Shown piece by piece: positions 6,829-28,872 of a stretch of 64,000 nt of DNA. Within the stretch, counting starts at the first letter, position 1; each line of letters starts with the position of its first letter. The translations under genes and the position numbers were made by a program. A model generated the notes under the pieces. That model was not told the DNA's origin, did not search any database, and worked only from the letters and a program-made list of their open reading frames with translations. Source of the DNA: Luteitalea sp. Lineage in GTDB: Bacteria; Acidobacteriota; Vicinamibacteria; Vicinamibacterales; CAVVIG01. The DNA lies in assembly GCA_009380045.1 (NCBI GenBank), contig WHSN01000002.1, positions 9,744 through 73,743 on the forward strand. Reading direction: 5' to 3'.

Positions 6829-7313
6829 ACGATCTGCTGCCGCTGCTCGAGGAGTTCCATCGCGAGAAGCTGGCCTCGTTGCTGCGACACGAAGCGGGCG
6901 CGCGCCTGATCGGACAGTACGACTTCAACAACACCTATCAGTACATCATCAACCGCGAAGACGTTCAGCTGTCGTGGGTCAGCCAGGCGATCGACGAGCT
7001 TGGCGGCTCGGCCGACAACAACGTTCAGGCGCCGGAGCGTCAGGCGCAGGGGAAGGCCGACGCCGCCGCCCGCGCGATCATGGAAGAGGATCAGCGCGAC
7101 GCACAGGCGTTCGTCGAGCGGTGGCGCCCCCGCGTCGAAGCGATGACCAACGCCCGGCAGCGCGGCATGCTGCGCGTCATCCTCGGAGAGACCCTCGAAC
7201 AGAAGCGCTTCTTCGACCAGGCGCTGGCTGGCCAGATGGATCTGCTCGGCCGGCGCCCGGATCATGTCGGTCCTCGCGTCGGCTCGGTGATGTCGACACG
7301 GTGGATCGAGTAG
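6825..7313 (+). CDS. hypothetical protein
   Basis: ORF 6804..7313. The likely GTG start at 6825 overlaps the upstream stop (GTGA). Composition and G/C-rich third positions look coding. No family recognised. Confidence 0.5.
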   Translation: MNDLLPLLEEFHREKLASLLRHEAGARLIGQYDFNNTYQYIINREDVQLSWVSQAIDELGGSADNNVQAPERQAQGKADAAARAIMEEDQRDAQAFVERWRPRVEAMTNARQRGMLRVILGETLEQKRFFDQALAGQMDLLGRRPDHVGPRVGSVMSTRWIE

Positions 7314-7774
7314 TCGCGCTCGCCGCCATCGGCCTCGGTTCCAATCTCGGCGATCGTCATGCCCATCTCGCCTACGCCCGCTCCCGCCTCGAGACGCTGC
7401 TCGCCAATCTGCGCTTCTCGTCCGTTCGCGAAACAGACCCCGTCGGCGTGCCTGGTCCGCAGACTCGGTACCTGAATGCGGCGGCGGTCGGCACGACCGA
7501 CGCCTCGCCGGAAGAGTTACTGGATGCGCTTCTCGCGATCGAGCAGGAGCGTGGACGGGAGCGCCCGTACCCGAACGCGCCTCGCACGCTCGATCTGGAT
7601 CTGCTGCTGGTGGGGGAGCTTGTAATGGCCGGCGAGCGGCTGGTGTTGCCCCATCCGCGCATGGGCTGCCGCGCCTTTGTCCTCGAGCCGCTGGCCGAGA
7701 TCGCCCCCCGGCTGCGCCACCCCGTCACCGGTCAGACGATTGGGGAAATGCTGGCGGCCTGTCGGAGACGCTGA
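7301..7774 (+). CDS. folK: 2-amino-4-hydroxy-6-hydroxymethyldihydropteridine pyrophosphokinase (HPPK)
   Basis: C-terminal 158 codons of ORF 6974..7774 from GTG 7301: AAIGLGSNLGDR...RETDPVG...YLNAAA...IEQERGRER...PRTLDLDLL...PHPR. This is the typical HPPK pattern and length. Confidence 0.8.
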   Translation: MDRVVALAAIGLGSNLGDRHAHLAYARSRLETLLANLRFSSVRETDPVGVPGPQTRYLNAAAVGTTDASPEELLDALLAIEQERGRERPYPNAPRTLDLDLLLVGELVMAGERLVLPHPRMGCRAFVLEPLAEIAPRLRHPVTGQTIGEMLAACRRR

Positions 7775-7812: not shown

Positions 7813-8754
7813 TCAGAAGTCTTTGAACGTTCGCTTCACCACTTGCGCCCAAGGATGGGTGCGCTCGTCTGCGACTGCTGGTTGGCGCCTCCCTTCCTGG
7901 GCGCTTCGAACGGATCCTGAGACCGGGATTCGCGTAGCCGTACCTTCGTAGGGAATGGCACTCGCAGGCTCCGCTTCCAGGCCTCCCGCTTCGTCGCTGG
8001 TGATGCGAACCGTGGCCACCTCGCCATTCCCGCCGAGTGGCCGGCCTGCCGTTCCATTGATCGAATAGGCGACGGTTGCTGCGTCTCCGACGCTGAGCGT
8101 GATCGTGCTGCGCGCCTCAACCAGACTGCGCTCACCTGGCTGCATGAGGCGATAGATCACGCGCTCCCCATCTGCCAGGACGGAGACCCAACATGGGCCA
8201 TTGAGTCGAAGCTCCAGCCGCAACGACGCCGCACCCGTGTCTGCGACGGCCGTGTTGACGAACTCGACGTGCTCGATGCCATCCAATTCGTCTGTCGGCG
8301 CCGCGGCTTCTGGAGGGTTGGACTCGACCGCGTTCAGCGTCCGATCTTCGTGTGATGGCTCCTGGCGGAAGCGGGTGAGCCCCATTAGGAGCAATCCGCA
8401 GATCAGGAGTCCGAGGCAGATCGCCAACCCGGCCGCCGCCCGGCGAAGCGTACGAGACCGGTCGTCGTAACCAGCGTCGTGCATCGGCAGCGCGTCGGCG
8501 GGTAGTTCGGCTTCGAATTTCGCGCGATACTCGCGTGCGAGTTCGTCTGCGTTCAACCCCACCTCGGCCGCGAACGCCCGCACGTAAGCCCTTCGGAACA
8601 CTCCGCCCGGAAGACGGGCGAAGTCGTTGTGCTCGATGGCATTGAGCGCGGTGGTCGAGATCTTGGTGGTATTGGCGATGTCCCGGAGCGTCAGCCCTCG
8701 CTGCTCGCGAGCCTGGTGGAGGCGGGAACCGATATCCGTAGCGGTCTGGTCCAT
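7813..8754 (-). CDS. RodZ-like protein: XRE-type HTH, one TM segment and a DUF4115-like C-terminal domain
   Basis: The N-terminus IGSRLHQAREQRGLTLRDIANTTKISTTALNAIE is an HTH. A TM segment (AAGLAICLGLLICGLLLMGL) follows. The C-terminus is beta-rich (LELRLNGPCWVSVLADGE...). I chose the ATG at 8754; an alternative TTG at 8796 overlaps the upstream stop. Confidence 0.7.
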   Translation of the reverse strand: MDQTATDIGSRLHQAREQRGLTLRDIANTTKISTTALNAIEHNDFARLPGGVFRRAYVRAFAAEVGLNADELAREYRAKFEAELPADALPMHDAGYDDRSRTLRRAAAGLAICLGLLICGLLLMGLTRFRQEPSHEDRTLNAVESNPPEAAAPTDELDGIEHVEFVNTAVADTGAASLRLELRLNGPCWVSVLADGERVIYRLMQPGERSLVEARSTITLSVGDAATVAYSINGTAGRPLGGNGEVATVRITSDEAGGLEAEPASAIPYEGTATRIPVSGSVRSAQEGRRQPAVADERTHPWAQVVKRTFKDF

Positions 8755-8792
8755 GTGGAACCCATGTGAATGAGACACCGGCCTGGCCAGGG

Positions 8793-10205
8793 TCAACCTC
8801 TGTGTCCCGCGCCGAGCAACGTCTCCTCCGGCTCGATGTCTGGCAGCCTGGCATCGAGTGACGCGCGAAGCCGCGGAAGGCTTTCCGGGTACTTGTGCTG
8901 AACGAACGAGACCAACTTCTCACGGATCTCGCAACGAAGGTCCCAGGCGAGGGATGCATCCGCGGCGCTCGCGAGGGCCCGAATCTCCAGAGTGTGCTCC
9001 TTCGCATCGGTGACCTGCAGGACGTTGACCTTGCCGTCCCAGTAGCGCGATGTTTCGAGGAGCCGTGTGAGCTCCGCGCGTAACGCATCGAGAGGCACGG
9101 TGTAGTCCACATAGAGGAAGACAGTGCCGAGAATCTCAGCCGACGAGCGTGTCCAGTTCTGGAACGGCTGCTCGATGAAGTAGTTGATCGGCACCACCAG
9201 CCGTCGCAGGTCCCAGATCCGGACCACGACGTAGGTGAGCGTGATGTCTTCGATCCGTCCCCACTCGTTCTCGACGATGACGACGTCGTCCACGCGGATC
9301 GGCTGTGTCAGCGCAATCTGGAATCCGGCGAGCAACGTCGCGATGCTCCGTTGGGCTGCGAAGCCGATGACGATGCCGGCAATGCCGGCCGACGCGAGAA
9401 TGCTAGCGCCGAATTGCCGCACCGAGTCGAAGACCATCAGCATCGACGCCAGCGTGAAGATGCCGATTGCCGTCACGGCCACCTTCTTCAGCACAACGAC
9501 CTGGGTGTAGATCGAGCGGGCCTGCAGGTTGTCGCTGACGTCGATCCGATGTTGTCGGAGGACGAACGATGCCGCGGCGTTCACGATCTGGAACAGGATG
9601 AACGCGAGCACGCCGATCAGCAGCAGGCTGGTGGCATTTCGGACCACCTCGGCCAGGGCCGGCGAGACCGAAAGGGCCGGCGCCCCGAGGATGAGCGCCA
9701 GAAGAGGAAGCCCGCGTCTAATCGCGTTGCCGGCGAGCGGCAGCAGCAGGTCATCCCAGGAGGTCTCCGCCCGGGTCGACAGCGACACCAGGAACGCTTC
9801 GATCAGCCGGCCGGTACGTGAGAGCAGCCAGAAGATCGCGCCGACGACACTGACGCTGTAGGCCCAGGTCAGAGCGACGAGTGCCGGTTCGGCAAGTGTC
9901 CGCAGGCCGGCCTGGCGCAACAGCAGGCTCAGCGCAAAGTAGAGTCCGTGAATCCATATCAGAAGGGCGAGCGCTGGCAGGATCTCCCTGAGACCGCGTG
10001 TCGACCAGCGTCGGAGATGCGTTTGGCCCGTCGCGCAGTCGCTCACGGCGGCGGCATCATCCTGGCGTGCCTTCCGCTGAACCCACCAGCGCAGCCAGAG
10101 GAGCGCCACGGCCATCAATGTCAGCACCAGCGCTGCCAATGTGACGGCTGACGCACCGAACCCGGCGATGAGCTGTGTCCACAATGACGACAGGTCGTCC
10201 TCCAT
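8793..10205 (-). CDS. mechanosensitive ion channel family protein (MscS-like)
   Basis: Several N-terminal TM helices, then the MscS core IVIGFAAQRSIATLLAGFQIALTQPIRVDDVVIVENEWGRIEDITLTYVVV. The ATG at 10205 lies 5 nt after the cupin stop. The track ORF extends to GTG 10247. Confidence 0.8.
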   Translation of the reverse strand: MEDDLSSLWTQLIAGFGASAVTLAALVLTLMAVALLWLRWWVQRKARQDDAAAVSDCATGQTHLRRWSTRGLREILPALALLIWIHGLYFALSLLLRQAGLRTLAEPALVALTWAYSVSVVGAIFWLLSRTGRLIEAFLVSLSTRAETSWDDLLLPLAGNAIRRGLPLLALILGAPALSVSPALAEVVRNATSLLLIGVLAFILFQIVNAAASFVLRQHRIDVSDNLQARSIYTQVVVLKKVAVTAIGIFTLASMLMVFDSVRQFGASILASAGIAGIVIGFAAQRSIATLLAGFQIALTQPIRVDDVVIVENEWGRIEDITLTYVVVRIWDLRRLVVPINYFIEQPFQNWTRSSAEILGTVFLYVDYTVPLDALRAELTRLLETSRYWDGKVNVLQVTDAKEHTLEIRALASAADASLAWDLRCEIREKLVSFVQHKYPESLPRLRASLDARLPDIEPEETLLGAGHRG

Positions 10206-10210
10206 TGTTC

Positions 10211-10696
10211 TTACAGGGCCGGAAACGTCAGACCGAAGCGCCGGCACAGATCCGGGACGCTTTCAAACCGCATCTCGAGCGCATACTTGTCGTTGATTTG
10301 GGCAAACTTGGCCGCGTCTCCCCACGCCACGGCCACCTCCCGGAAGTACCCCTCAAAACCCGCAGGTGAGATGACCTCGATGATCTCGCAGGGCGTGTCG
10401 CCGGCATTCCAGAAGGTGTGCCACTGCCTACGAGGCTTGAAGATCCAGGTCCCCGCATCGGCGGTCACGACTTCCTCCCCCAACAACGCTCCGAGCCTGC
10501 CGGTCAGCACGTACGACAGCTCGTCCTCGTTGTGGTGATAGTGAAGCGGCGCCGCGAGCGCGTGCGGGGCGATCGGATGGTGGACGACCGAGAACCGCCC
10601 CCCTGTCTGGTTCCCGTCGACCTTCCAACAGACGCCCAGCCCGCCGAAATCGAAGCTTTCCCTTTCTCCTGGGCTGACCATCAATGCCTTCGTCAC
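10211..10696 (-). CDS. cupin domain-containing protein
   Basis: Cupin motifs HYHHNEDELSYVLTG and WHTFWNAGD. The GTG at 10696 is preceded by GAGGAGGAG. The track ORF starts further upstream at 10774. Confidence 0.7.
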   Translation of the reverse strand: MTKALMVSPGERESFDFGGLGVCWKVDGNQTGGRFSVVHHPIAPHALAAPLHYHHNEDELSYVLTGRLGALLGEEVVTADAGTWIFKPRRQWHTFWNAGDTPCEIIEVISPAGFEGYFREVAVAWGDAAKFAQINDKYALEMRFESVPDLCRRFGLTFPAL

Positions 10697-11391
10697 GTTC
10701 TCCTCCTCATGTCTCGAGAAACCTCTCGCCACAGCCCCGAGCCTGGCTCGCGCCAGGAGCGCGCGGCCAGCCACGCGACAGGAAACGGCTGTATGGGATT
10801 GGCGTGCCGTGGCGGAACGCGAGCGGATAGAAGTAAAGGGGGAGTACTAAAAGACGCCGCGGCCGAGATTCTTGAAGGCGGGCAGGGGCGAACGCGACTC
10901 GGCGCACGTCAGCGCATCGAAGAGGGCGTCCCGAAAGAGGGAGCTCGTAAACGGGCAGAACGCAAGGCCCACGTGTCAACGCTAACGCGCGGCGTGAATC
11001 CTGTCAATGAACGCGTTGGATGTTGGATGTGAGCCCCCTCAAGGAGTCTCTTCCAGGAATTCCATCGAGGCGGCCGTGCGGCGAACGCTCCGAACCGCTG
11101 TGGAGCACGACCTCAAACGGCGCACGGATCGTGCCCGGCAGATTGGTGCGCTAGCTCGACGTCGTGACCGACTTCGATCCTGTTTTGACCTGACCCTGCG
11201 CGCGGCGAAACCCTGACGCCGATCGAGCGTGCGAGTTGCCGGACCCCCAACGCGCCTACAATTGGCCGTGCGATCCAAATTCCAGAAGTCGCGGAGCTCG
11301 CTCCCGCTCCCAAAATCTTCCGGGCGAAGGCGATGGGTGCCATTCACGGGCGACCTGGGCGCGAACCATTCATCTCCGGCTTGACCCTGTC

Positions 11392-12672
11392 ATGGAGCCT
11401 ACCAGCCCCTATCGACCTCGGGTATCGCGCGAAACCCGGCTGCTGCTGACGGCCGGCGTGTTGGCGATCGCAGCGCTCTGGCTCTTGGCGCGCTTCAGGT
11501 TCCGGGATCTTCCTGTGACACCCAATCCAATCCCGGCTGTCCTCAGTCAGCTGGCCACCGGTCCCAGGTATGACGACCTCGCTGCGGAGATCGCGCCGCT
11601 CCAAGCCCGGCTGGAAGCCTCCCTTCTCGCGCTCGAACCTCGTTCGGTTGTCTTTGGCTCTCAGCAGACCTCACGCCGGATCGCGGCGCTGAGATTTCGC
11701 GACGACGTCGCGGTGACCCTGCTCCCGACCGGGTCGATTTTCGAGGAGGCAAACCTCCTCGCCAGCGATGCGGCCTCTGGCCTCGCCGTGGTGCGCGTGC
11801 CGAGCCAGGCGCCCAGCTCTACGCCGGCGCCATGGATACCACGCCGCCTTCAGCAACCGCGTTACCTCATCGCCACTGACCTGTCACCGAACGGCGTGTC
11901 ACTGCGCCCGGTATTTGTGGGATCGCTCGATCAGATAGACAGCCCGTTGTGGTCCGAGCCGCTATGGACGGTGCCGGAGCGGAGTGATTTGGCGCCGGGG
12001 TCATTTCTGTTCACCAGTAACGCCGAGCTCGTGGGCATGGTAATCGAGGACGGTGTCGAGCGCGTCATCGTGCCGGGTTCGACGCTTCTCCAGCAGGCGG
12101 ATCGCCTGGTGGAAGAACCAAGGGAACCCGCCGGGACAATCGGCATTGAAGTGCAGGCGCTGACAGAACCTGTGGCGTCGGTGACGGGTGCTTCCGCCGG
12201 CATCGTCGTCACGTGGGTTGAACAGGACGGCGCCGCCATGGGGCAGCTCATGGCGGGCGACGTCATCGAAGCGATCGACGGGCGGACGCTCGCGACTCGT
12301 CAACATTGGGACGTTCGTGTGGCCCGCCTGTCGGTGGGCGAGACGCTGCCGCTCCGCGTGCGCAGGCGTGGCGAGGTCCTCGACGTGATGTTGGTCGCGA
12401 CCAGCGCTGCCGTGCAGGCCCCCACCCGGGCGCTTGGTCTCACGCTGCGTGGACGGACGGGAATCGGTGCCGAGGTGACCCGTGTCGAGCCCGCTTCCGC
12501 CGGGGACCGGGCCGGACTGGCGGTCGGCGACGTGATCACGCTCGTCGCCGCTGTCAGGGCGCCGACGCCGGCCCAGGTCGCGCGGTCCTTCACCTCCGTG
12601 CCCCAGGGTCAGCGTGTGATGATTGCCGTCACGCGAGGCGATGCTCACCATGTGACGACGCTGGAACGATGA
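11392..12672 (+). CDS. membrane-anchored HtrA/DegP-like protein with two PDZ domains; protease catalytic motifs not evident
   Basis: From ATG 11392 there is an N-terminal TM segment (LLLTAGVLAIAALWLLARF) and a trypsin-fold-like region. That region lacks a recognisable GNSGGP serine box; GSFLFTSNAELVGMV sits in its place. Two PDZ-like segments follow (GIVVTWVEQDGAAMGQLMAGDVIEAIDG and GAEVTRVEPASAGDRAGLAVGDVI). Confidence 0.65.
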   Translation: MEPTSPYRPRVSRETRLLLTAGVLAIAALWLLARFRFRDLPVTPNPIPAVLSQLATGPRYDDLAAEIAPLQARLEASLLALEPRSVVFGSQQTSRRIAALRFRDDVAVTLLPTGSIFEEANLLASDAASGLAVVRVPSQAPSSTPAPWIPRRLQQPRYLIATDLSPNGVSLRPVFVGSLDQIDSPLWSEPLWTVPERSDLAPGSFLFTSNAELVGMVIEDGVERVIVPGSTLLQQADRLVEEPREPAGTIGIEVQALTEPVASVTGASAGIVVTWVEQDGAAMGQLMAGDVIEAIDGRTLATRQHWDVRVARLSVGETLPLRVRRRGEVLDVMLVATSAAVQAPTRALGLTLRGRTGIGAEVTRVEPASAGDRAGLAVGDVITLVAAVRAPTPAQVARSFTSVPQGQRVMIAVTRGDAHHVTTLER

Positions 12673-13847
12673 CGTCCCTTCCAGCCGGGGATCCGTTCGG
12701 CCTTCTCGATCCGTCTCTCGATGGCGCCGTCGACCAGGGACGTGGGCGGGCGTTGGACCCTGATGGGGCCGGGACGCGGAGCTGGCGCCGGTTGCTCGAA
12801 TGGTCGGCGACATCGGCTCCGGTGGCTCCTCTCCTCGTGATCGGAATCGCGGTCGGCCCTCGCGGCATCAACCTGCTGTCTGCAGCTGTGCTGGGGTTGC
12901 TCGATCCGGTGGTTCCGGTCGCGCTCGCCGCACTGGGGGTGCTTATCGGGCTGGCCGTGGGTGACCGTCGAGCGGACAACCGGCGTCTGTTCGCCGCCGC
13001 GTCTCTCGACGCGGCGGCGACCATGCTCGTGGTCTCGGCCGGGATCGGCGTGGTCGCGTTCGCGGCGATGTCACCGGTCGCCCGCCCCTTCGGGACACTC
13101 GCCTTGATCAGCGGCATCTGTGCCGCAACGTCGCTGACGCTGCCGGCGGGCAATCCCTTGGAACCCCGGACGGCGGCCACCCGCGTCAGCGAGATCGGCG
13201 TCCTGCTCCCGATTGTGGCGGGCGGGTTTGTGCTTGCGTGGCTGCGCGCGGGCACGCCCCTGGGAGCCGTTGTCCTCGTAGCGCAGGCGTGCGGCGTGAC
13301 ACTTGCGCTGGCCGCCGCCGCATGGCTGTTGTTGACACGGGCCTCTTCCGAAACGGAAGAACGCGTCCTGGCCGTTTCGGCACTGCTCCTCGTCGGCGGC
13401 GTCGCGGACGCCCTTGCCCTGTCCGCGCTGTTCGGCGGGCTGGTTGCCGGTGTGTGCTGGCGCTACGCGGGACGGCACCCGCGCGAGACGATCAGTCGGG
13501 ATGTGTTTTTCATACAGCACCCCCTCCTCGTGCTCGTGCTGCTGGTGGCCGGGGCTCGTGCGGATCTGACGACCGCCTCACTCGCACTAGGGGCCGGGTA
13601 CGTCGTGCTGCGCACCGCTGGCAAGGTGGCAGGAGGCGCCGTGGCCAGGCGCGTCGCCGGCGTGAACGTGCCTCGCGATCTTGGGCGCTCCCTTCTGCCG
13701 CCGGGCGTCTTCGGCGTGGCGTTCGCGCTCAACGCGATCAACGTCGTCGGCGCCGACGCGTCGCTCCTGCTTGCGGCAGTCGTGATTGGCACCGTCGGGT
13801 CGCAGTTCGTCGCGCTCCTGCTGCCACATCGGAGAGTGGGCGAGTGA
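12669..13847 (+). CDS. polytopic membrane protein, cation/proton-antiporter (Na+/H+ exchanger family)-like
   Basis: ATG 12669 overlaps the upstream stop (ATGA). About 11-12 hydrophobic helices. LLVIGIAVGPRGINLL resembles the [16 protein letters not shown] start of the next gene's membrane domain, so the two look paralogous. Confidence 0.6.
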   Translation: MTSLPAGDPFGLLDPSLDGAVDQGRGRALDPDGAGTRSWRRLLEWSATSAPVAPLLVIGIAVGPRGINLLSAAVLGLLDPVVPVALAALGVLIGLAVGDRRADNRRLFAAASLDAAATMLVVSAGIGVVAFAAMSPVARPFGTLALISGICAATSLTLPAGNPLEPRTAATRVSEIGVLLPIVAGGFVLAWLRAGTPLGAVVLVAQACGVTLALAAAAWLLLTRASSETEERVLAVSALLLVGGVADALALSALFGGLVAGVCWRYAGRHPRETISRDVFFIQHPLLVLVLLVAGARADLTTASLALGAGYVVLRTAGKVAGGAVARRVAGVNVPRDLGRSLLPPGVFGVAFALNAINVVGADASLLLAAVVIGTVGSQFVALLLPHRRVGE

Positions 13848-16603
13848 GGCGCCTGCTGGCGCTCGGGTTGGCTGTCGGCGCGATGGCCTCGGTCCGCGAG
13901 CTCCGCATCCAGGTGACGGCCGGTTCAGCGGCCACCGCGCTGGCACTTGGGTTCGCGCTGATGGGCGCGTCGGTCACGGGTGACGTGCTGCGGCGGTTTC
14001 ATCTCCCGCGCCTGACCGGGTATCTCCTCTTCGGTGTGGTCGTCGGGCCGTCTCTCGGCAACCTGATTACCCAATCGATGGCCGCTCAGCTTCAGGTGGT
14101 CACGGGAATCGCCACGACGCTGATCGCGCTGATCGCTGGCCTGACGTTGAGCGTCGAGCGCCTCGGGGCCCGACTCGCGGCGATCATGCGGATGACCGCC
14201 GCGACCCTGGTCGTGGCCATGGTCGGTCTATCAGCGGTGGCGTGGATGGTATGGCCGTGGCTGCCCATTGCGCCCGACGCCGTCGGGTCCCAGCGGCTTG
14301 TCATGCTGACCTTGCTGGTCGTGATGGTCGTCTCGTTCTCGCCGACGATGACGGCGGCGGTGGTCGCGGACTCGGGAGCCCGCGGGCCACTGAGCGATAC
14401 GGTGCTGGCGATCGTCGTGCTCGCCGATCTCGCGATTCTGGTGCTCTTCTCGGTGTCGATGCAGCTGGCGCGAATCGTCTTCGACACTGGCGAAGGCCAG
14501 GGCGTGGAGGTGCTGGCGCGACTCGCCTGGGAGATCGGGGGGGCCGTCGCCTTTGGCGTCCTCATCGGCGTCTTGTTTGCGTTCTATTTGCGCTACATCG
14601 GCCGGGAGATCACGCTTGTCCTGCTGGCTGTGTGCGCCGTGCTGAGTCAGGTCGGCACGACGCAGCAACTCCAGTCGCTGCTGGCAGCCGTCGCGGCGGG
14701 TGTGGTGATCGAGAACCTGGCGGTCGCACAGGGCGACACATTGCGGGCCGCCGTGCGCCGTGGCGCGCCGCCGGTGCTGGTGGTCTTCTTCGTGGCGGTC
14801 GGCGCGTCACTTCGGCTCGACGCCCTGGCCGCCATCGGGCTGAGCGCGGTGACATTGTCTGCGGTCCGACTCGGATTCATCAGGCTTGGAGTCGGGGCAG
14901 GCGTCACGCTCTCGGGGCTTCCCGAGCCAATCGGGAAGCACGCCTGGACGGGCCTGGTGTCCCAGGCCGGCATTACTCTGGGATTTGCCTCCGTCGTCGC
15001 CACCGAGTTCCCCGGGTGGGGGAACCAGGTGCAACTGCTGCTGGTCGCGTCGATTGCGATTCACGAGCTCGTGGGACCGATTCTGTTTCGCCGCGGGCTG
15101 GTTCAGGCCGGCGAGCTCGACGCGCACGTGCCTCGTCCCCTCGTGGTCGTGTCCAACCGCGAACCGTACCTCCACAGCCGGGATGAGGACGGCCGAATCG
15201 TGGCGCAAGCCGCGACCGGTGGCGTCGCCGTGGCCCTGGACGCCCTGATGCGCGAACGTGGCGGCGTGTGGATCGCCCACGGAGCCGGCCCGGCGGACCG
15301 GTTGGTCGTCGATGCGACTGACAAGGTGCGGGTCCCCCCTGAGAGCCCATCGTACGCGCTTCGGCGTCTGTGGCTCGAGGAGCCCACCTTCTCTGCGTAC
15401 TACGGGGGCTTCGCGAATGAGGGCCTGTGGCCGTTGTGCCATGTGGTCGATGTCCGTCCACAGTTTCGGAGCGAGGAATGGGCGGCCTACCAGGACATCA
15501 ACGGGCGCTTCGCCGCCGCGATTCACGCCGAGCTCGGCGCGTCCAACGCGCCGGTGTTCATCCAGGACTATCACCTGGCGCTCGTCGCGCCAGCGTTGCG
15601 GGCGCTGCGGCCTCACACGCGCACGGCCCTCTTCTGGCACATCCCCTGGCCCTATCCCGATCGCCTCCGCATCTGTCCGTGGCGGCGCGAACTTGTCGCG
15701 GGACTGCTGGCCAACGACCTGATCGCCTTTCAACTGGAACGCGACCGCCGAAATTTCCTGATGGCCGCCGACGAAGAGCTGCACGCCGAGGTCGAGATCG
15801 AGTCGTCGCGAGTCCGATTCGGCGGGCGCTCCACCACGGTCGTCTCGGTGCCCATCGGTGTCGACTACGACCGCATCCAGAGCTTCGCCGCTGACCCGGC
15901 GCTCCTGACCGAGCAGCAGCGTCTGCGGGAGCTGCTCGGCCTTCGGGCGGAGATCGTCGGGCTCGGCGTCGATCGACTCGACTACACCAAGGGCATCCCT
16001 GAGCGCCTCGACGCGCTCGCGGCGCTGATGGCCGAGCGGCCGGATCTGCGGGGGCGGTTGACGTTCGTGCAGATTGGCGTGCCGTCCCGTTCGGATCTCA
16101 AGAGCTATGCGGCCATCGAAGCGGAGATCGGCCAGCGGATCGCCACGATCAATGCGCGCTACGCGGTTCCGGGCGGCGCACCGGTGGTGTCGTACTACAC
16201 GACGCCGCTCGGGGCGTTCAGCCTCGTGGCGCTCTATCGTCTCGTCCACTTCTGCATCGTCAGCTCGCTGCACGACGGGATGAACCTCGTGGCAAAGGAG
16301 TTCGTTGCCGCCCGCGACGATGACCACGGCGTACTCGTGCTCAGCGCCCTGGCCGGCGCCGCGCAGGAGCTCGAGGACGCGGTGATCATCAACCCCTACG
16401 ACATCGATGCGTTCGCCGCGGCCCTCGGACGAGCCATAAACATGACGAGCGAAGAGCAGGTGAGACGCATGCGGACGATGCGGAAGGTGGTCGCGGGACG
16501 GAACGTCTTCAACTGGGCGTCGGATATCCTGGAGGGTCTCGAGAGTCTCTGGACCAAGCCGCTGCTCTACTCGGTCCGGGGGTGGGAAGAGACGTCGGTG
16601 TGA
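13844..16603 (+). CDS. otsA: fusion protein: N-terminal cation/proton-antiporter-like membrane domain plus C-terminal alpha,alpha-trehalose-phosphate synthase (GT20, OtsA)
   Basis: GTG 13844 overlaps the upstream stop (GTGA). The first ~430 aa are polytopic ([43 protein letters not shown]). The C-terminal ~480 aa align by eye to E. coli OtsA ([73 protein letters not shown]). Confidence 0.8.
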
Positions 16604-16861
16604 GGCGGGCATCGAGTGGCTCGCACAGCGCCTTCCGGCGGTCGGTCGTCAGTCGGGCTCACCGATATCGACGTCAGTCGCCGACCGGCGCGCGTGGGGA
16701 TTTCGCGGGCGAACGCGCCGCCTGGGAGTGCAAAACCAGTCCGCTCGTTCGACGAGTGGGGCGCCCGGTCACCTTTCGCGTGCTCGCCGGTGTATCATTC
16801 ATGGGGAGCGCGCTCGAAGGTTGAAGAAGCGTTTCTACCTCGAGTTGCTTCGCCTTGCATC

Positions 16862-18121
16862 ATGATCAGTAATCCCACCGCCTTCCGGACCGTTCCACGC
16901 ACGGGCGTCATCTTCGTGATGTCCGAGGCGCAGACGAGCGGCTATTCGGCCCTCGATCCCGAGTGGTGCAACCTCGGTCAGGGCCAGCCCGAGACCGGCG
17001 CGCTCGAAGGCGCGCCAGAACGCGTTCGGGACGTCAATATATCGGTCGACGATCAGGAGTACGCGCCGGTCGGCGGAATCGGTGAGCTGCGCGAAGCGAT
17101 CGCCGACCTCTACAACGGGCTCTATCGAAGGGGCCGCGGGTCGCAGTACTCCGCCGAGAACGTGTGCGTGTCCGGCGGCGGCCGTGCGGCCCTCACTCGT
17201 GCGGCGGCGAGCCTCGGCACCATCAATCTGGGCCATTTTCTGCCCGACTACACCGCATACGAAGAGCTGCTCGATCTCTTCAGGACGTTCAACCCGACTC
17301 CGATCCTGCTCGATTCCGACCGCGGCTACGCGTTCTCGCACGAGGACCTGCGAAGGGAGATCCTCGGCCGTGGGCTCTCCGCGATCCTGGCGTCGAATCC
17401 CTGCAATCCGACCGGCAAGCTCGTCGGGGGTGAGGACCTCGAAGCGTGGGTAGCCGTCGCGCGCGACCTCGATTGCTCACTGCTCCTCGACGAGTTCTAC
17501 TCACACTACATCTACCGCGCGAAGCCCGGCGCGCTGCCCGTCGAAAGCGCCGCACGCTATGTTGACGACGTGGACCGTGATCCGGTGATTCTCTTCGACG
17601 GCCTGACCAAGAACTGGCGGTATCCCGGATGGCGCGTGACCTGGGCGATCGGTCCAAAGGCGGTGATCGAGGCGCTCACGAGCGCGGGCTCGTTCCTGGA
17701 CGGTGGCGGAAACAAGCCGCTCCAGCGGGCTGCGATTCCGCTCCTGGCCGAAGATCACGTCGTCAAGGAAACGCTCGCTATCCGAAACGCGTTTCGTGAA
17801 AAGCGCGATTGCATGGTCTCGCGGCTCGAGCGCATGGGCGTACAGATCGATCGTCCGCCAGATGGAACGTTCTATGTCTGGGGCAGCGTCGCCGATTTAC
17901 ACCCCTCGATTGCCGACGGTATGAGCTTCTTCCGCGCCGCGCTCGACAGCAAAGTGATCGTCGTGCCCGGTGAATTCTTCGACGTCAACCCTGGCAAGCG
18001 CAGGGGTCGCGGATCGCGGTTTCGCGCGCACGTTCGCTTCTCGTTCGGACCGAGCTTGGGGGCGGTGGAGAAGGCGCTCGGTCGTCTCGAACAGCTGGTC
18101 GACGCGTTCGCCACCGCCTGA
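16862..18121 (+). CDS. pyridoxal-phosphate-dependent aminotransferase (class I/II)
   Basis: From ATG 16862 (MISNPTAF): GQGQPE, NPCNPTG, DEFYSHY, and LTKNWRYPGWRV as the PLP-lysine region. Length is 419 aa. Confidence 0.8.
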   Translation: MISNPTAFRTVPRTGVIFVMSEAQTSGYSALDPEWCNLGQGQPETGALEGAPERVRDVNISVDDQEYAPVGGIGELREAIADLYNGLYRRGRGSQYSAENVCVSGGGRAALTRAAASLGTINLGHFLPDYTAYEELLDLFRTFNPTPILLDSDRGYAFSHEDLRREILGRGLSAILASNPCNPTGKLVGGEDLEAWVAVARDLDCSLLLDEFYSHYIYRAKPGALPVESAARYVDDVDRDPVILFDGLTKNWRYPGWRVTWAIGPKAVIEALTSAGSFLDGGGNKPLQRAAIPLLAEDHVVKETLAIRNAFREKRDCMVSRLERMGVQIDRPPDGTFYVWGSVADLHPSIADGMSFFRAALDSKVIVVPGEFFDVNPGKRRGRGSRFRAHVRFSFGPSLGAVEKALGRLEQLVDAFATA

Positions 18122-18195
18122 ACTCGCTGGCGCGCAACTCCCCGGCGCCGGAGCGAAGACGGCCATGCGCGAGCATCGACCGGTGGCTGGCGCGC

Positions 18196-18684
18196 TCAGG
18201 CGCTCTTGGCGAGCGCCTTCAACGGCTCACCGGTAAGCCGCTGAATCGTCCAGTCGTTCATCGCCGTCGCGCCCACCCCCCGATACACACGCAGCGCCAT
18301 CTCGTTCCAGTCCAGGACCGACCACTCCATCCGGCCGAACCCCCGATCGATCGCAATGTGTGCCAGGTGCGCCAGCAGCTTCCGCCCCAGCCCCTGTCTC
18401 CGCCATTCGGGACGCACGTAGAGGTCCTCCAGATAGAGGCCCGGTCTCGCGAGAAACGTCGAGAAGCTGATGAAATACACCGCAAACCCGGCCGGCTCCG
18501 CGCCGGCGTAGGCGAGCACGGCGTAAGCGACGCGCTCGGGTCCAAAGAGCGTCTCGTACAGATCGGATTCAGTGGCAGTCACCTGATCCCCGAGCTTCTC
18601 GTAGTCAGCGAGCTCTCTGATGAACTGCAGCACCACCGGCAGGTCCTGCTCGGTCGCGGGCTGTAGACGGAACGCGAGGGTCAT
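18196..18684 (-). CDS. GNAT family N-acetyltransferase (diamine acetyltransferase-like)
   Basis: From ATG 18684 (MTLAFRLQPAT...). Acetyl-CoA motif A: LYVRPEWRRQGLGRKLL. Confidence 0.75.
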   Translation of the reverse strand: MTLAFRLQPATEQDLPVVLQFIRELADYEKLGDQVTATESDLYETLFGPERVAYAVLAYAGAEPAGFAVYFISFSTFLARPGLYLEDLYVRPEWRRQGLGRKLLAHLAHIAIDRGFGRMEWSVLDWNEMALRVYRGVGATAMNDWTIQRLTGEPLKALAKSA

Positions 18685-22555: not shown

Positions 22556-25500
22556 TCAGGCTTCGGCCTTTGCCGACCGCCGCCACGGCATGCGGATGCC
22601 TTCCTCGAACAAGGTGTAGACCGTCGGCACGAGCACCAGGGTGATCAGCAGCGATGTGGTGAGGCCCCCGATCACGACGCGGGCGAGCGGTACCTGCAGC
22701 TCGCTGCCTTCGCCGATACCGAGCGACATCGGTACCAGACCGAGCGCGGTGGCGATCGACGTCATCAGAATCGGGCGAAGACGCGTGCGGCCGGCCATTT
22801 CGACCGCCTCACGCAACGGCAGGCCGTCGCGGCGCCGGAGCACGTTGGTGTAGTCGACCAGCAGGATGCCGTTGCTGACGACGATACCGGCGAGCATGAT
22901 GATGCCGATATACGCCTGCATGTTGAACGACGTGCCGGTGAGCTTCAACGCCAGCACCACGCCGATGGCGGCCGTCGGCACCGAGAACATGATGATGAAC
23001 GGATCCCTCAGCGACTCGTACTGCGACGCCATCACCGCATAGACCAGCACGAGGGCGAGGATGAGCACCATGCGCAGCTGGTCGAACGCCTGGGCCTGCT
23101 GCTCGACTTCGGCCCCGAAACCGATCGAGAAGTCCTGCGGCAGCAGCCCATGAATCTGCGGCAGCCGGTCCTGCACGCTCTTGACTGCGTCGCTGAGCGT
23201 CGCTTCAGGCTCGGCGCTGACATACGCGATCCGCTGCTGGTTCTTGCGCTGAATCTGGCTCGGCCCGATCGCGTCTTCCACGCGCATCAGGTTCTTCGCC
23301 TGCAGCACCTGGCCGGACGGCGTGCTGACCAGCACGTCGTTGACGTCGGTGATGTTCTGCCGCTCCTCCTCGCGGAGGCGGACGACAATCGGGTACTCGT
23401 TGCCTTCCTGGCGGAACATCGCGGCCTGCGTGCCCGCGACGTTGGTGCGGATCGTGTTCGCCACGGTGGTCGCGCTCACTCCGAGCAGTGCCGCCTTGGC
23501 CCGGTCGATACGGATCGCGAGCTCCGGGCGGCCTTCATCGCGCCCGAGCCGCGCGTCGGCCACGCCCGGAGTGGTGTCCAGGAGGTCCTTCGCCGCCGTC
23601 GCGACCTTCCTCGCGTCCTCGAGGCTCTCGCCCCGGATTTCGAGGGCCAGGCGTCCGCCGCCCTGGTTGCCGCCAGAGAGGAGCCGGTTCAACTGGTTGT
23701 TGCCGCCGGAGGCGTTGGCGCGGACGATCACCCCGGGGATGCCCGAGAGCTGACGCCGCAGGTCCACGGCAATCTGCTCGCTCGAGCGGGTGCGCTCGTC
23801 CTTGGGTGTCAGGAGCAGCTGGAGGTTGCCGCGGTTCACCGACGCGCCGCCCGGGCCGAACCCGCCGCCGCCTGCCTGGACGATGATATCGGTCGCTTCG
23901 GGCACATACTCGTGAATCGCCGCTTCGACGCGCTGCAGCACCGGGTCGGTGACCTCGATCCGTGTCCCTTGCGGCAGCTCGACGTTCACCTGCACCTCTC
24001 CTTCGTCGGCCTGCGTGCTCAGCTCGGTCGGCAGCGTCGGGAAGATGACGGCGGCGACTACCACCGATGCGACCGCCAGGCCGACCACGATCGGACGATG
24101 CCGGAGCGCCAGATGGAGGAGCTTGCGATAGCCTTCGTCCATCCCCTCGAGGAACCGCTCGCTCATGGTGTACAGCCGGCCGCCCAACCCCCTGCGCTTG
24201 TCGGGTGGCGGAGGCAGAACCAGGAGCCGGGAGCAGAGCACCGGCACCACCGTGACCGCGACGAACAGCGACATCAGCAGCGAGAAGACGACCACGATCG
24301 AGAGCTGCCGGAACAGGATGCTCGACACGCCCTCGAGGAACAGCAGCGGCACGAACACCGCGATGTGGGTGAGGATCGACGCCAGGATCGCCGACCACAC
24401 CTCTTCGCTGCCGTCGATGGCCGCCGTCATCCGATCCTTGCCGTGGTGCTCCATGTGCCTGAACGAGTTCTCCAGCACGACGATCGCCGCATCGACAATC
24501 ATGCCCACCCCGAGGGCGAGACCGCCGAAGGTCATCGTGTTGAGCGTCAGGCCCCCGAAGTAGAGCAGGGCGAAGGTGCCGACCACCGAAATCGGGATCG
24601 CGGTGCAGACGATCAGCGTCGAACGGAAGTTTCTCAGAAACAGGAAGATGATCAGGATGACCAGGCCCGATCCGATCATCACGTGTTCCTGCACGGCGTG
24701 AATCGAGCGCTCGATGAACTTGGCGCTGTCGTTCAGCAGCGAGAGCTTGATGCCGGGCACCTCGCGGTTGATGCGCTCCATCTCCGCCCGGACGCCTTCG
24801 GCAATCCGCACCGTGTTGGTGCCCGACTGCTTGGTGATCTGGAGGCGGACGCCCTGACGGCCGTTGATCCGCAGCACCGATCGGTTGTCTTCCGTGGAGT
24901 CGACGACGTCGGCGATGTCCCTCATGTAGACAGGGACGCCGCCCTTGGTGAGCACCACGAGGTTGCGGATCTGGTCGAGGTCCTGGAATTGACCCTGGCT
25001 GCGCAGCAACAGCGCGCTGTCTCCCCGGTAGACCTCGCCGATCGGGATGTTCTCGTTTTCCAGGCGCAGGACGTTGACGATCCGGTCGACCGAGAGGTCG
25101 AGCGCCGTGATCTTCTCGCGCGACAGGTCGACGTGGATCTGGCGGCGGAGACCGCCGTTGACGGTGACCGCGGCGACGCCCTGCACGCGCTCGATCCGCT
25201 GCGACAACACGTTTTCCGCGAGCTCCCGCAGCGCGACGCGATCCAGGCTGCCGTCGGTGCTCTCGACGCCGAGGCCCATGATCGGCGCGGCGTTGGTGTC
25301 GTACTTCTGGATGATCGGTGGTTCCGCGTCCTCGGGCAGACGTCCGCGCACGCGGTCGATGCGGGTGCGGATGTCGTCCATCGCTTCGTTCAGGTCGGTG
25401 CCCCACGTGAAATTGAGCCTGACGCTGGCGTTCCCCTCGTCCGCGGTCGAGTTCATCTGGTCGAGGCCCGAAACCGCGCTGAGCTGCTGCTCGAGCGGGC

Positions 25501-25693
25501 GCACGATCAGCTCCTCGATCTCGAGCGGTCCGACGCCCGCGTAGTTCACACGGACGTTGATGGTCGGTTGCGAGATGTCCGGCAGCAGGTCGACCGGCAG
25601 CCGGGTCAGCGAAATCCCACCGATGAGGATGACGATCGAGCTGATCATCAACATCATGATCGGCCGCTCAATCGCAAAACGAGGGATGCTCAT
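22556..25693 (-). CDS. RND family efflux transporter permease (AcrB/HAE1-like)
   Basis: 1045-aa ORF. Typical N-terminus MSIPRFAIERPIMMLMISSIVILIGGISLTRLPVDLLPD, 12-TM layout and two large periplasmic loops. Confidence 0.9.
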   Translation of the reverse strand: MSIPRFAIERPIMMLMISSIVILIGGISLTRLPVDLLPDISQPTINVRVNYAGVGPLEIEELIVRPLEQQLSAVSGLDQMNSTADEGNASVRLNFTWGTDLNEAMDDIRTRIDRVRGRLPEDAEPPIIQKYDTNAAPIMGLGVESTDGSLDRVALRELAENVLSQRIERVQGVAAVTVNGGLRRQIHVDLSREKITALDLSVDRIVNVLRLENENIPIGEVYRGDSALLLRSQGQFQDLDQIRNLVVLTKGGVPVYMRDIADVVDSTEDNRSVLRINGRQGVRLQITKQSGTNTVRIAEGVRAEMERINREVPGIKLSLLNDSAKFIERSIHAVQEHVMIGSGLVILIIFLFLRNFRSTLIVCTAIPISVVGTFALLYFGGLTLNTMTFGGLALGVGMIVDAAIVVLENSFRHMEHHGKDRMTAAIDGSEEVWSAILASILTHIAVFVPLLFLEGVSSILFRQLSIVVVFSLLMSLFVAVTVVPVLCSRLLVLPPPPDKRRGLGGRLYTMSERFLEGMDEGYRKLLHLALRHRPIVVGLAVASVVVAAVIFPTLPTELSTQADEGEVQVNVELPQGTRIEVTDPVLQRVEAAIHEYVPEATDIIVQAGGGGFGPGGASVNRGNLQLLLTPKDERTRSSEQIAVDLRRQLSGIPGVIVRANASGGNNQLNRLLSGGNQGGGRLALEIRGESLEDARKVATAAKDLLDTTPGVADARLGRDEGRPELAIRIDRAKAALLGVSATTVANTIRTNVAGTQAAMFRQEGNEYPIVVRLREEERQNITDVNDVLVSTPSGQVLQAKNLMRVEDAIGPSQIQRKNQQRIAYVSAEPEATLSDAVKSVQDRLPQIHGLLPQDFSIGFGAEVEQQAQAFDQLRMVLILALVLVYAVMASQYESLRDPFIIMFSVPTAAIGVVLALKLTGTSFNMQAYIGIIMLAGIVVSNGILLVDYTNVLRRRDGLPLREAVEMAGRTRLRPILMTSIATALGLVPMSLGIGEGSELQVPLARVVIGGLTTSLLITLVLVPTVYTLFEEGIRMPWRRSAKAEA

Positions 25694-25769
25694 ACGGGCT
25701 CCTGAAAACGGTCAGATGTCACGCCGTCCGGCCGACGCCGAACACTTCACACTCGTGTGCCGTGGTCCC

Positions 25770-27095
25770 TCAGCTGGTGGGGGCGCCGCCACGGCGGCCC
25801 TCGCCGCCCAGCCCGCCGCTTCTGGCCCCAGCCGGTGCGCCCCGACCATTCCCGCCTTGTTGGCCCTGCCCGAACAGGAGGATCTTGTCGCCCTCACGAA
25901 GCGCTGCCGAACCGGTGGTGACCACGCGCGCGCCCTCGGACAAGCCCGCCGCGACTTCGACGTGCTGCGAATCCACCATGCCGATGGTGATCGCGTGGAA
26001 CCTCGCGACATCACCTTCGTCGGGCAGGAACACGCCTTTCTTGCCATTCAGATCGACGACGGCGTTTGCCGGGACGACGAGCGCGTTCTCCCTGTGCTCG
26101 ACCGTGAAGCTCACCCTCGCGTACATCCCCGGCTTCAGGCGCAGCTTCGCGTTGTCGATCTCGACTTCGATCTGCGCGGTCCGGGTCGCCGGATCGAGGA
26201 CCGGCGCGACATGCGCGATCCGCCCCTCGAACATCTCACCCGGGAAGGCATCGACTTCCACCGTTGCCTTCATGCCCGCCGTGATGCGGCGCAGGTCCCG
26301 TTCGACGATGTTGGCGACGAGTCGAACGACGCTGATGTCGACGACCGAGATGAACGCCGAGCTCGGGGTGACCCAGGCGCCGGGATCGAGCACCCGCGAC
26401 GCGACGAAGCCGCTGACCGACGACGTGATGGTGGTGTTGGCGAGGTTGATCTTGAGCTCGTCGAGCCGCGCCTCGGCCTGCGAATGTTGCGCTTTGGCAA
26501 GATCGAGCTGCGCCGCCGCCGCCTGATACCGCGCTTCGGTGTCGTCGTAGGTCTGCTTGGGAATCAGTTCCCGCTCGAACAGGTTGCGCGAGCGTTCCAG
26601 GTTCGTCTGCGCCAGGCGGAGGTCGGCCTCGCGCTGCCGGATGGTCGCGGCAGACACGCCGTAGGACGCCTCGGCCTGTTTCACCTGCTCGAGAATTTCA
26701 CGATCTTCCACCTTGGCGAGCCGCTGGCCGCGGCCGACCCGGTCACCGAGCCGGACCGATACCGATTCGAGGCGGCCGCTCACTTTGGGTACGGCTTCGA
26801 CGGTGGCGGCGCCGATCAGGTTGCCGACCACGGTCATGGTCTCGGTCATGTCGGCGCGCTTCACGGCGGCGAGCTCCACGGTCATCGGCAGCCGTGGGCC
26901 GCCGCCGAAGCCACCAGCACCGGGCCCGCCAGACCCTCCCGGGCCGCCCTGCCGTCCGCCGCGTCCCTGCTCCTGGGCGCCCGGCGCACCAGTGGCGCCC
27001 GCCGCGTTCGCGTCCGTGCCACCGCGCTTGAGGTAGTACGCACCGCCGCCCACGGCGGCTGCGAGAATGGCTACGACGATGATCGACGGTTTCAT
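25770..27095 (-). CDS. RND efflux periplasmic adaptor subunit (MFP)
   Basis: TM/signal anchor, lipoyl motif (VSGRLESVSVRLGDRV), coiled coil, and ITSSVSGFVASRVLDPG. Both the N- and C-terminal tails are Gly/Arg-rich. Confidence 0.85.
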   Translation of the reverse strand: MKPSIIVVAILAAAVGGGAYYLKRGGTDANAAGATGAPGAQEQGRGGRQGGPGGSGGPGAGGFGGGPRLPMTVELAAVKRADMTETMTVVGNLIGAATVEAVPKVSGRLESVSVRLGDRVGRGQRLAKVEDREILEQVKQAEASYGVSAATIRQREADLRLAQTNLERSRNLFERELIPKQTYDDTEARYQAAAAQLDLAKAQHSQAEARLDELKINLANTTITSSVSGFVASRVLDPGAWVTPSSAFISVVDISVVRLVANIVERDLRRITAGMKATVEVDAFPGEMFEGRIAHVAPVLDPATRTAQIEVEIDNAKLRLKPGMYARVSFTVEHRENALVVPANAVVDLNGKKGVFLPDEGDVARFHAITIGMVDSQHVEVAAGLSEGARVVTTGSAALREGDKILLFGQGQQGGNGRGAPAGARSGGLGGEGRRGGAPTS

Positions 27096-27124
27096 GATGC
27101 TCCGTGTCTACTGAGGTCTGAGCC

Positions 27125-28813: not shown

Positions 28814-28872
28814 CTCGACTATCCCTCTTGGACGGTTCACTGTTGGGGCGTTGTTCATCCCGCGGTGAGGCG

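Follow-up and report, generated by a model that had tools for sequence, protein, structure and literature searches.

Trehalose is one of the main compounds that protect soil bacteria from drought and osmotic stress. OtsA, the trehalose-6-phosphate (T6P) synthase, is a textbook-soluble enzyme. Potassium glutamate builds up first after an osmotic upshift, and the conversion of this ionic phase of K+ uptake into compatible-solute synthesis is poorly understood. Stimulation of OtsA by K+ is an old observation that lacks a structural basis. Here we analyse a gene of Luteitalea sp., a member of the Vicinamibacterales, which are among the most abundant soil Acidobacteria. The gene lies within a 64,000-nucleotide stretch of contig WHSN01000002.1 (hereafter the window, to whose positions all coordinates refer) and encodes, in a single frame, a membrane domain resembling cation/proton antiporters (CPA) and an OtsA domain.

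The closest described systems concern the enzyme, the exchanger and the link between trehalose synthesis and the membrane. According to a passage in PMC6291793 that cites Giaever 1988, K+ stimulates the T6P synthase of E. coli and counts as a second messenger for the compatible-solute phase. In KefC, a cytoplasmic C-terminal domain docked below the NhaA-fold core can gate transport; D156 is the essential ion-binding aspartate, K307 is the lysine of transmembrane helix 11 (TM11) that holds the crossover, and S125 and T127 coordinate K+ (PMC11150392). The msc-gt-tpsp operon of Thermoproteus tenax, for which a model of a stress response has been put forward, encodes a trehalose synthase complex together with a putative mechanosensitive channel (PMC3634074).

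At the Luteitalea locus the synthase and the membrane domain are parts of one polypeptide. We propose, with a probability of about 0.5, that a heteromeric, exchanger-like membrane complex tethers and probably regulates T6P synthesis here, with cation status coupled to OtsA catalysis.

Results

One open frame spans an antiporter-like domain and OtsA

Gene 3 of the locus (13844..16603, forward strand) consists of one open frame, 919 sense codons long and closed by TGA. It starts at a GTG that overlaps the TGA with which the upstream gene ends (GTGA), and the sequence GGAGAG lies 8–13 nt upstream of that start. A first-pass annotation had described an uninterrupted 919-codon frame joining an N-terminal Na+/H+-exchanger-type domain, a short linker and a complete GT20-family OtsA, and each of these elements is confirmed. 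Pfam profiles place PF00999 (Na_H_Exchanger) at residues 46–406, with an E-value of 5e-21, a score of 75.4 bits (gathering score 26.2) and coverage of profile positions 8–360 of 375. PF00982 (Glyco_transf_20) follows at residues 433–900, with an E-value of 8e-109, 364.9 bits against 32.5, and coverage of profile positions 3–472 of 473. The membrane domain proper extends over residues 27–421 (13922..15106, forward strand). It is joined to the GT20 domain (residues 433–900; 15140..16543, forward strand) by an 11-residue linker (residues 422–432; 15107..15139, forward strand) whose length is conserved in the clade and whose consensus reads GLAxAGELDxxxPRP. The AlphaFold2 model of the fusion has a mean predicted local distance difference test score (pLDDT) of 73.

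The fusion is ubiquitous within one clade

The annotation had also asked whether an assembly indel might have joined two adjacent genes. A search of a 5.8-billion-protein collection returned 1095 relatives, of which the best 120 clusters (90% identity) were considered in detail. These best 120 come from JGI, ENA, NCBI and Logan, are 78–91% identical to the fusion and are 835–920 residues long, nearly all of them 914–920; both Pfam domains are recorded in 117. A scan of GTDB, with one genome per species, gave 112 relatives, and all 80 of the loci listed encode the full-length fusion at 61–92% identity. Some long-read relatives do carry frameshifted copies (L017, L027, L029 and P0247), and these reveal nothing specific to the window. 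The uninterrupted frame across at least 120 clusters and at least 80 species genomes, together with the conserved linker, refutes an artefactual fusion, and we regard its probability as negligible.

Nearly all carriers are labelled as Vicinamibacterales, Vicinamibacteria or Acidobacteriota metagenome-assembled genomes (MAGs). All of the carrier genomes listed are MAGs; the list has no cultured isolate. Among the best 150 matches to the N-terminal domain (N-domain) at 50% clustering, the sole intact fusion cluster was P0100, and the frameshifted P0247 was present as well. Judged from these searches, therefore, the fusion architecture is confined to one clade and is ubiquitous within it.

Frameshifted, Arg-rich C-terminal stretches were seen in L017, L027, L029, L057, L086, P0247 and P0253; the contigs of L017, L027 and L029 are 0.36–4 Mb long. 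We attribute the frameshifts to indel errors in the assemblies and do not regard these copies as pseudogenes, but the copies could mislead counts of domain architectures. Indeed, P0247 (876 residues, no GT20 Pfam match) looks like a different fusion and is actually a frameshifted copy of a 51%-identical CPA–OtsA gene. Four copies of the locus (L004, L028, L053 and L068; 64–92% identical) lie on contigs labelled as Gemmatimonadaceae, Bifidobacteriaceae, Bifidobacterium or Acidimicrobiia MAGs; mis-binning, not horizontal transfer, is the most likely source of these labels. Two further MAGs each have two fusion contigs (L009/L010, 89–90% identical to the window, and L046/L049, 73–74%); each pair could represent paralogues, a mixture of strains or a duplicated bin.

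An OtsA domain that appears catalytically intact

The closest sequence match of the GT20 domain in the PDB is M. thermoresistibile OtsA (5jij, 5e-81), and fungal Tps1 and E. coli OtsA are matched as well. AlphaFold2 models most of the domain with pLDDT values of 75–95. Foldseek comparison of the fusion model with the PDB returned 5jio, 1gz5, 1uqt and others (E 1e-25 to 1e-29, target-normalised TM-score 0.77–0.83), which supports a GT-B two-Rossmann fold superposable on the solved OtsA and Tps1 structures. All of the top 50 Foldseek matches of the whole model were OtsA structures, and none fell on the transmembrane domain.

Aligned pairwise with OtsA of E. coli K-12, the domain is identical at all 12 active-site residues that we checked. 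R439, G460, Y520, W529, D575 and H599 of the fusion correspond to R9, G22, Y76, W85, D130 and H154 of the E. coli enzyme, and R711, K716, R749, D811, L815 and E819 correspond to R262, K267, R300, D361, L365 and E369. These positions, whose letters were checked against the E. coli sequence, are those that bind the phosphate of glucose-6-phosphate (G6P), the phosphates of UDP, and glucose. The 12 residues are kept throughout the fusion clade. The domain is under strong purifying selection, with a ratio of non-synonymous to synonymous substitution rates (dN/dS) of 0.08–0.11, and is by this measure the most constrained part of the operon. It does not reach the equivalog cut-offs of NCBIfam (406 against 565 bits for TIGR02400; 451 against 634 bits for PRK14501). 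Even so, OtsA-type models rank first, ahead of GgpS (276 bits). Taken by its sequence, the GT20 domain looks like a genuine, apparently catalytic T6P synthase.

We place the OtsA domain on the cytoplasmic side of the membrane, because the alignment with KefC begins at KefC TM1 and the C-terminus of KefC is inside the cell; the substrates of OtsA are found on this side too. That alignment starts at residue 41 of the fusion, which corresponds to KefC residue 15.

Beyond the catalytic domain, residues 901–919 (16544..16600, forward strand) form a tail that is predicted to be disordered; pLDDT is below 50 for residues 902–919. The clade consensus of the tail is ...LWTKPL.Y..R..[ED][ED]x[S/P/A]V-COOH. 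Of 75 intact copies among the 82 loci compared below, 72 end in Val and one in Met, and two have divergent tails. The tail is missing both from an unfused OtsA (L085) and from the standalone CPA protein P0246.

The N-domain aligns end to end with KefC

A profile built from 50 family members matched NHE6 (4.7e-11), NHE9, NapA, PaNhaP and MjNhaP1 in the PDB. The family profile also aligns from end to end with E. coli KefC (hhalign probability 96%, E 3.5e-9). In this alignment D195 (14426–14428) falls on KefC D156 and R342 (14867–14869) on KefC K307; the counterparts of the essential TM5/6 aspartate and of the basic TM10/11 residue in NapA are D157 and K305. Within the fusion clade D195 does not vary, and its conservation across the wider family is at least 90%; R342 is invariant in all 50 aligned family members. 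S164–P167 aligns with KefC L124–T127, the segment that includes S125 and T127. On the combined evidence of Pfam, profile alignment and the key Asp and Arg, the N-domain is assigned to the CPA superfamily. The fusion itself is, by the same kind of comparison, not a Kef protein, because it has no RCK domain, carries AD instead of the QD motif and falls short of the CPA2 cut-off.

The AlphaFold2 model of the domain, moderate in quality, has two broken helices, with breaks at residues 163–166 and 372–375. These coincide with the invariant motifs SFSPT (S164–T168) and VSQA (V372–A375). Beyond the N-terminal helix the model shows a KefC-like series of helices. The helix itself (modelled at residues 2–19) belongs to a signal-peptide-like or extra N-terminal segment, residues 1–19 (13844..13900, forward strand), that stands ahead of the region aligning with KefC TM1 and is also present in standalone CPA relatives. 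Polar residues within the membrane are invariant at S166, P167, T168, D195, E290, N291, R342, S373 and Q374.

Selection has acted on the transmembrane domain almost as strongly as on the enzyme. Its dN/dS of 0.12–0.16 is near that of the GT20 domain and half that of the neighbouring genes (0.24–0.35 for the gene directly upstream). A value this low speaks against a role as anchor alone.

The fusion is the third gene of a conserved triad

Locus comparisons covered 82 related loci (L001–L082) from about 80 species. By tblastn, the fusion stands at all 82 in the same order behind two further genes, with overlaps of 4 bp. The middle gene is found at every locus and the first, which encodes PDZ domains, at 80, being missing just at two contig ends. 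In the window the overlaps are ATGA between genes 1 and 2 and GTGA between genes 2 and 3, in agreement with the translational coupling to a CPA-like gene and a PDZ protein that the annotation had pointed out.

Gene 2 (12669..13847, forward strand), here called MID, encodes a polytopic membrane protein of 392 residues. It has no Pfam match, and its 552 homologues are all named 'hypothetical'. BLASTP between MID and the N-domain is marginal (E 0.002), and global hhalign with shallow alignments did not resolve paralogy. With deeper alignments, however, local hhalign matches MID to the CPA-like family over 330 columns (probability 98.5%, E 2.3e-15). The AlphaFold2 model of MID (predicted TM-score 0.75) matches only CPA antiporters in Foldseek, including NapA (1e-6), KefC, PaNhaP, NHE1, SOS1 and NhaA. 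MID keeps an Arg equivalent to R342 (R315) and has no acidic residue in the D195 column; the closest one, the near-invariant E175, lies a helical turn before it. As far as profiles and the predicted fold can tell, MID is a divergent, degenerate NhaA-fold paralogue of the CPA-like domain. The paralogy that had been suggested for this gene is thus borne out by hhalign and Foldseek and not by Pfam.

Gene 1 (11392..12672, forward strand; true start ATG at 11392) encodes a 426-residue protein with two PDZ domains (Pfam matches PDZ_2, PDZ and PDZ_6; no Trypsin match). A single transmembrane helix at about residues 16–34 follows an N-terminal motif, YRPRVSRETR, that is conserved in more than 60 loci and predicted to be cytoplasmic. 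The family profile matches DegQ and DegP (1e-26 to 1e-20, positions 119–422), and the aligned part comprises the C-terminal half of the DegP/DegQ protease domain and both PDZ domains. Gly occupies the position of the catalytic Asp and the GNSGGAL serine loop is missing; gene 1 therefore appears to encode a membrane-anchored, catalytically dead pseudo-HtrA. The bulk of the protein, including the PDZ domains, is predicted to be periplasmic, because the charge is about +3 on the N side of the helix and +1 to +2 on the C side, and because of its HtrA ancestry.

The C-terminal tail of the fusion resembles a PDZ-type ligand, although the PDZ domains of the operon are predicted to be periplasmic. With OtsA placed in the cytoplasm, we disfavour the ...E-x-S-V tail as a ligand of these domains. 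The tail might instead contact the basic cytoplasmic N-terminus (RPRVSRETR) of the PDZ protein.

A gene for the phosphatase OtsB (PF02358) is adjacent at 47 of the 82 loci, where it follows the fusion directly or stands just ahead of the PDZ gene, and the OtsB encoded there has no signal peptide. The annotation had found no otsB in the window. Indeed, tblastn detected no homologue in the 64 kb, so otsB must be elsewhere in this genome; this absence is peculiar to the genome region, given the adjacency in more than half of the relatives.

Unfused relatives keep the same connections

The nearest unfused relative of the N-domain (P0246, 48% identity) belongs to a PDZ–MID–CPA operon with the same overlaps. 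Beside this operon, and divergently transcribed, are a separate GT20 gene of 502 residues and an otsB fragment. Next to the MID–CPA genes of a 44%-identical relative lie GT20 fragments downstream, and fragments resembling alpha-amylase/trehalose synthase and maltokinase upstream. In a distant relative (L090:5192-7359; 37% identity in the CPA domain), otsB (PF02358) shares a 4-bp overlap with a standalone CPA-like gene, and the next gene encodes a cation-diffusion facilitator. The latter locus is, on gene order, a second and independent link between the CPA family and trehalose.

The partners of the CPA-like gene vary. In a 39%-identical relative (L087/L088:5863-9383) the order is PTS_EIIA_2–MID–CPA, with a Usp gene on the opposite strand; PTS_EIIA_2 here takes the place of the PDZ protein, so the accessory regulator of the MID–CPA pair varies by lineage. 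The CPA gene of P0264 is overlapped by a Pfam-less gene of 417 residues. In P0267 (835 residues) and P0281 (907 residues) a MID-like half is followed by a CPA-like half in one polypeptide (locus L091:6001-8724); for P0267, hmmsearch gives 7.7e-29 and 2e-123 for the two halves. Fusion of two genes is a classic sign of subunits that act together, and these proteins suggest that NhaA-fold paralogues pair up in the wider family, as heterodimers or pseudo-dimers. To our knowledge no such arrangement has been described for CPA transporters.

Other relatives join the module to unrelated domains. P0337 (1301 residues) carries it C-terminally fused to an Ion_trans domain of the voltage-gated channel type, while its fusion partners in P0327 and P0358 are long regions that match AAA_16/AAA_22 weakly (AAA/STAND-like). 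The CPA domain is the sole Pfam-type match found in P0365. The long relatives P0327, P0333, P0358, P0365, P0371, P0381, P0386 and P0389 have 1393–1532 residues. By its domain combinations, the CPA-like module appears promiscuous in its cytoplasmic partners.

Other genes in the window

An MscS-type channel gene (8793..10247, reverse strand; identified by Pfam) and a cupin gene (10211–10774, reverse strand) lie divergently upstream of the triad. The annotation had read the MscS gene as fitting an osmotic context. The gene is real; as conserved context we reject it, since it is syntenic at only 3 of the 82 loci (L016, L019 and L020). The aminotransferase gene downstream of the fusion is conserved at none. 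Scanning 10700–18400 for promoters and terminators gave nothing above chance, and the window has no Rfam match.

Further away are an RND efflux operon (22556–28876, reverse strand) encoding an OEP outer-membrane factor, an HlyD-type adaptor and an AcrB-family pump, and genes for phosphoenolpyruvate carboxykinase (32080–33669), an RNase R/II-type protein (38566–40818), a RodZ-like protein (7813–8796) and HPPK (6974–7774). The RND operon and the housekeeping genes have no link to the fusion.

Discussion

In the mechanism that we propose, the fusion would be a T6P synthase built into the cytoplasmic membrane. Its 13-helix NhaA-fold N-domain would pair with the co-translated MID, giving a heteromeric exchanger-like core instead of the usual CPA homodimer. 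OtsA would hang off the last helix by the 11-residue linker on the cytoplasmic face, at the place where Kef exchangers carry their RCK domain. An allosteric link would join OtsA catalysis with the state of ion binding or transport in the core. The trehalose phase of osmotic or desiccation adaptation would then be tied to the monovalent-cation/proton status of the cytoplasm, with K+ as the prime candidate, and a Kef-like module on OtsA could read, or relieve, the K+ load during trehalose synthesis. The membrane-anchored, protease-dead HtrA-like protein may add an envelope input through its two PDZ domains, and OtsB, encoded elsewhere in the genome, would complete the pathway to trehalose. The heteromer, the identity of the cation, the coupling and its direction, and the sensor role of the PDZ domains are what we read from sequence comparison. 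The first-pass annotation had suggested that such synthesis is under the control of ion flux or of osmotic sensing, or is localised by them. We draw the same inference for trehalose, and comparative genomics strengthens it.

A bolder version of this mechanism is conceivable, and we hold it only tentatively. The transport or ion-occupancy cycle of a heteromeric exchanger, formed by MID and the N-domain, might be linked mechanically to the open–closed cycle of OtsA and, across the membrane, to a periplasmic, protease-dead HtrA/PDZ sensor, all of it independent of transcription. If this were true, envelope or ionic stress would directly switch on compatible-solute synthesis, possibly swapping cytoplasmic K+ for trehalose. 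The fusion would then be the first case in which regulation runs, in either direction, between a CPA exchanger and a metabolic enzyme fused to it, and also the first CPA transporter that is an obligate heterodimer.

Several observations weigh against an ion-coupled synthase. The N-domain searched alone with phmmer found no relative in the PDB at E ≤ 1, and it scores 42 bits against the 238-bit cut-off of the NCBIfam CPA2 model TIGR00932. The structural model has pLDDT below 50 for residues 230–309. The ion site is atypical: directly before D195 the fusion clade has Ala194 and the wider family, by consensus, Lys, while this residue is N in CPA1, D in electrogenic CPA2 and Q in K+/H+ exchangers, and the TM12 glutamate, KefC E337, has no counterpart in the fusion. 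Ions might thus be bound here and not transported, or neither bound nor transported. The MID–CPA pair is not universal in the wider family, as L089 has no MID. Finally, PDZ domains on the periplasmic side, as predicted, would not be able to bind the cytoplasmic C-terminal tail.

If the CPA-like domain neither transported nor sensed ions, it could be a pure anchor or scaffold that just holds OtsA at the membrane; trehalose might thus be made beside the bilayer during desiccation, or OtsA might be assembled with envelope proteins. The atypical ion site would suit this role, as would the degeneracy of MID (which Pfam does not recognise) and the fusion of the module to many unrelated partners, AAA/STAND-like and Ion_trans regions among them, as expected of a generic membrane module. 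Yet one helix would do for an anchor, and here a dedicated paralogous partner gene is kept, the polar intramembrane residues are invariant, and the transmembrane domain is constrained nearly as tightly as the enzyme and twice as tightly as MID. We consider an anchor alone to be unlikely.

The roles could also be reversed, with a transporter regulated by an enzyme-derived domain: GT20 would serve as an RCK-like sensor of UDP-glucose, G6P or T6P, and catalysis would be secondary or absent. The domain does sit at the Kef RCK position on a short linker, GT-B enzymes undergo large substrate-driven domain closure, and the score is below the OtsA equivalog cut-off of NCBIfam. Against this, all the catalytic and substrate residues checked are conserved in what is the most constrained part of the operon, the frequent adjacency of otsB implies that T6P is made, and the unfused sister keeps a normal otsA–otsB pair, all of which makes a regulatory GT20 doubtful, and slightly more so than the anchor. 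More remote still is a carrier for organic solutes, such as a sugar or sugar phosphate, with the NhaA-fold domain exporting or importing a metabolite of the trehalose pathway. The NhaA fold is common to non-cation carriers such as those for bile acids and auxin, and the canonical cation-site motifs are incomplete here. However, by sequence and by profile all of the best matches are to cation/proton exchangers, and the key Asp and basic residue are kept. Export of T6P in particular is disfavoured: OtsB, which lacks a signal peptide, is cytoplasmic, so such export would not be needed. We judge a solute carrier to be highly improbable.

The annotation had known of no characterised example of this architecture. 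Full-text searches of PMC and bioRxiv likewise found no description of a GT20–CPA fusion. A 2025 review of T6P metabolism does not contain the word 'transmembrane' and uses 'membrane-bound' for trehalase only, so it describes no membrane-bound synthase. The architecture is, however, already catalogued in databases under automatic names such as 'trehalose-6-phosphate synthase/Kef-type K+ transport system membrane component KefB'. As far as we have searched, it is thus catalogued yet uncharacterised, and the module of four components is previously undescribed. An ion-coupled synthase of the kind that we propose would offer a physically defined system in which the link from ions to osmolytes could be tested. 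It would also extend the ways in which NhaA-fold transporters are regulated, with an enzyme in place of RCK and a heteromeric core. Two large 'hypothetical' families, MID and the pseudo-HtrA, gain a function-linked context from the locus.

Comparison with known systems

The catalytic half of the fusion is close to OtsA of E. coli (1GZ5/1UQU) and M. thermoresistibile (5JIJ): it shares the GT-B fold, 33–36% identity, 12 of 12 residues and, in most relatives, an otsB partner. Whereas the known enzymes are soluble, the fusion adds a polytopic membrane domain of about 420 residues and a conserved acidic tail ending in Val. The membrane half is most like KefC and KefB, which have an NhaA-fold domain alignable over its whole length, the equivalents of D195 (D156) and R342 (K307), and a cytoplasmic alpha/beta domain past the last helix. 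The fusion differs from them in carrying an enzyme for RCK and AD for QD, and in having no E337 counterpart. Moreover, KefC is a homodimer with KefF or KefG as accessory proteins, whereas the fusion locus encodes a degenerate paralogue, MID, and a pseudo-HtrA.

Like the fusion locus, the msc-gt-tpsp operon of T. tenax couples T6P synthesis genetically to a membrane pathway and an activating partner. There, however, the linkage is by operon without fusion, the membrane protein is MscS-like and not CPA, the host is archaeal, and TPS is fused to TPP. Gene 1 shares a DegS-like N-terminal anchor and a DegP/DegQ-like protease-like domain with two PDZ domains, but it has lost the catalytic Asp and Ser positions and is coupled to transporter-like genes.

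An NhaA-fold core with an attached cytosolic domain is also seen in SOS1/NHX7, SLC9C1 and NHE1–CHP1, which are among the best structural matches for MID. In these exchangers the cytosolic modules are regulatory (cyclic-nucleotide-binding, voltage-sensing, autoinhibitory or calcineurin-B-like); in the Luteitalea fusion the corresponding position is taken by what looks like a metabolic enzyme.

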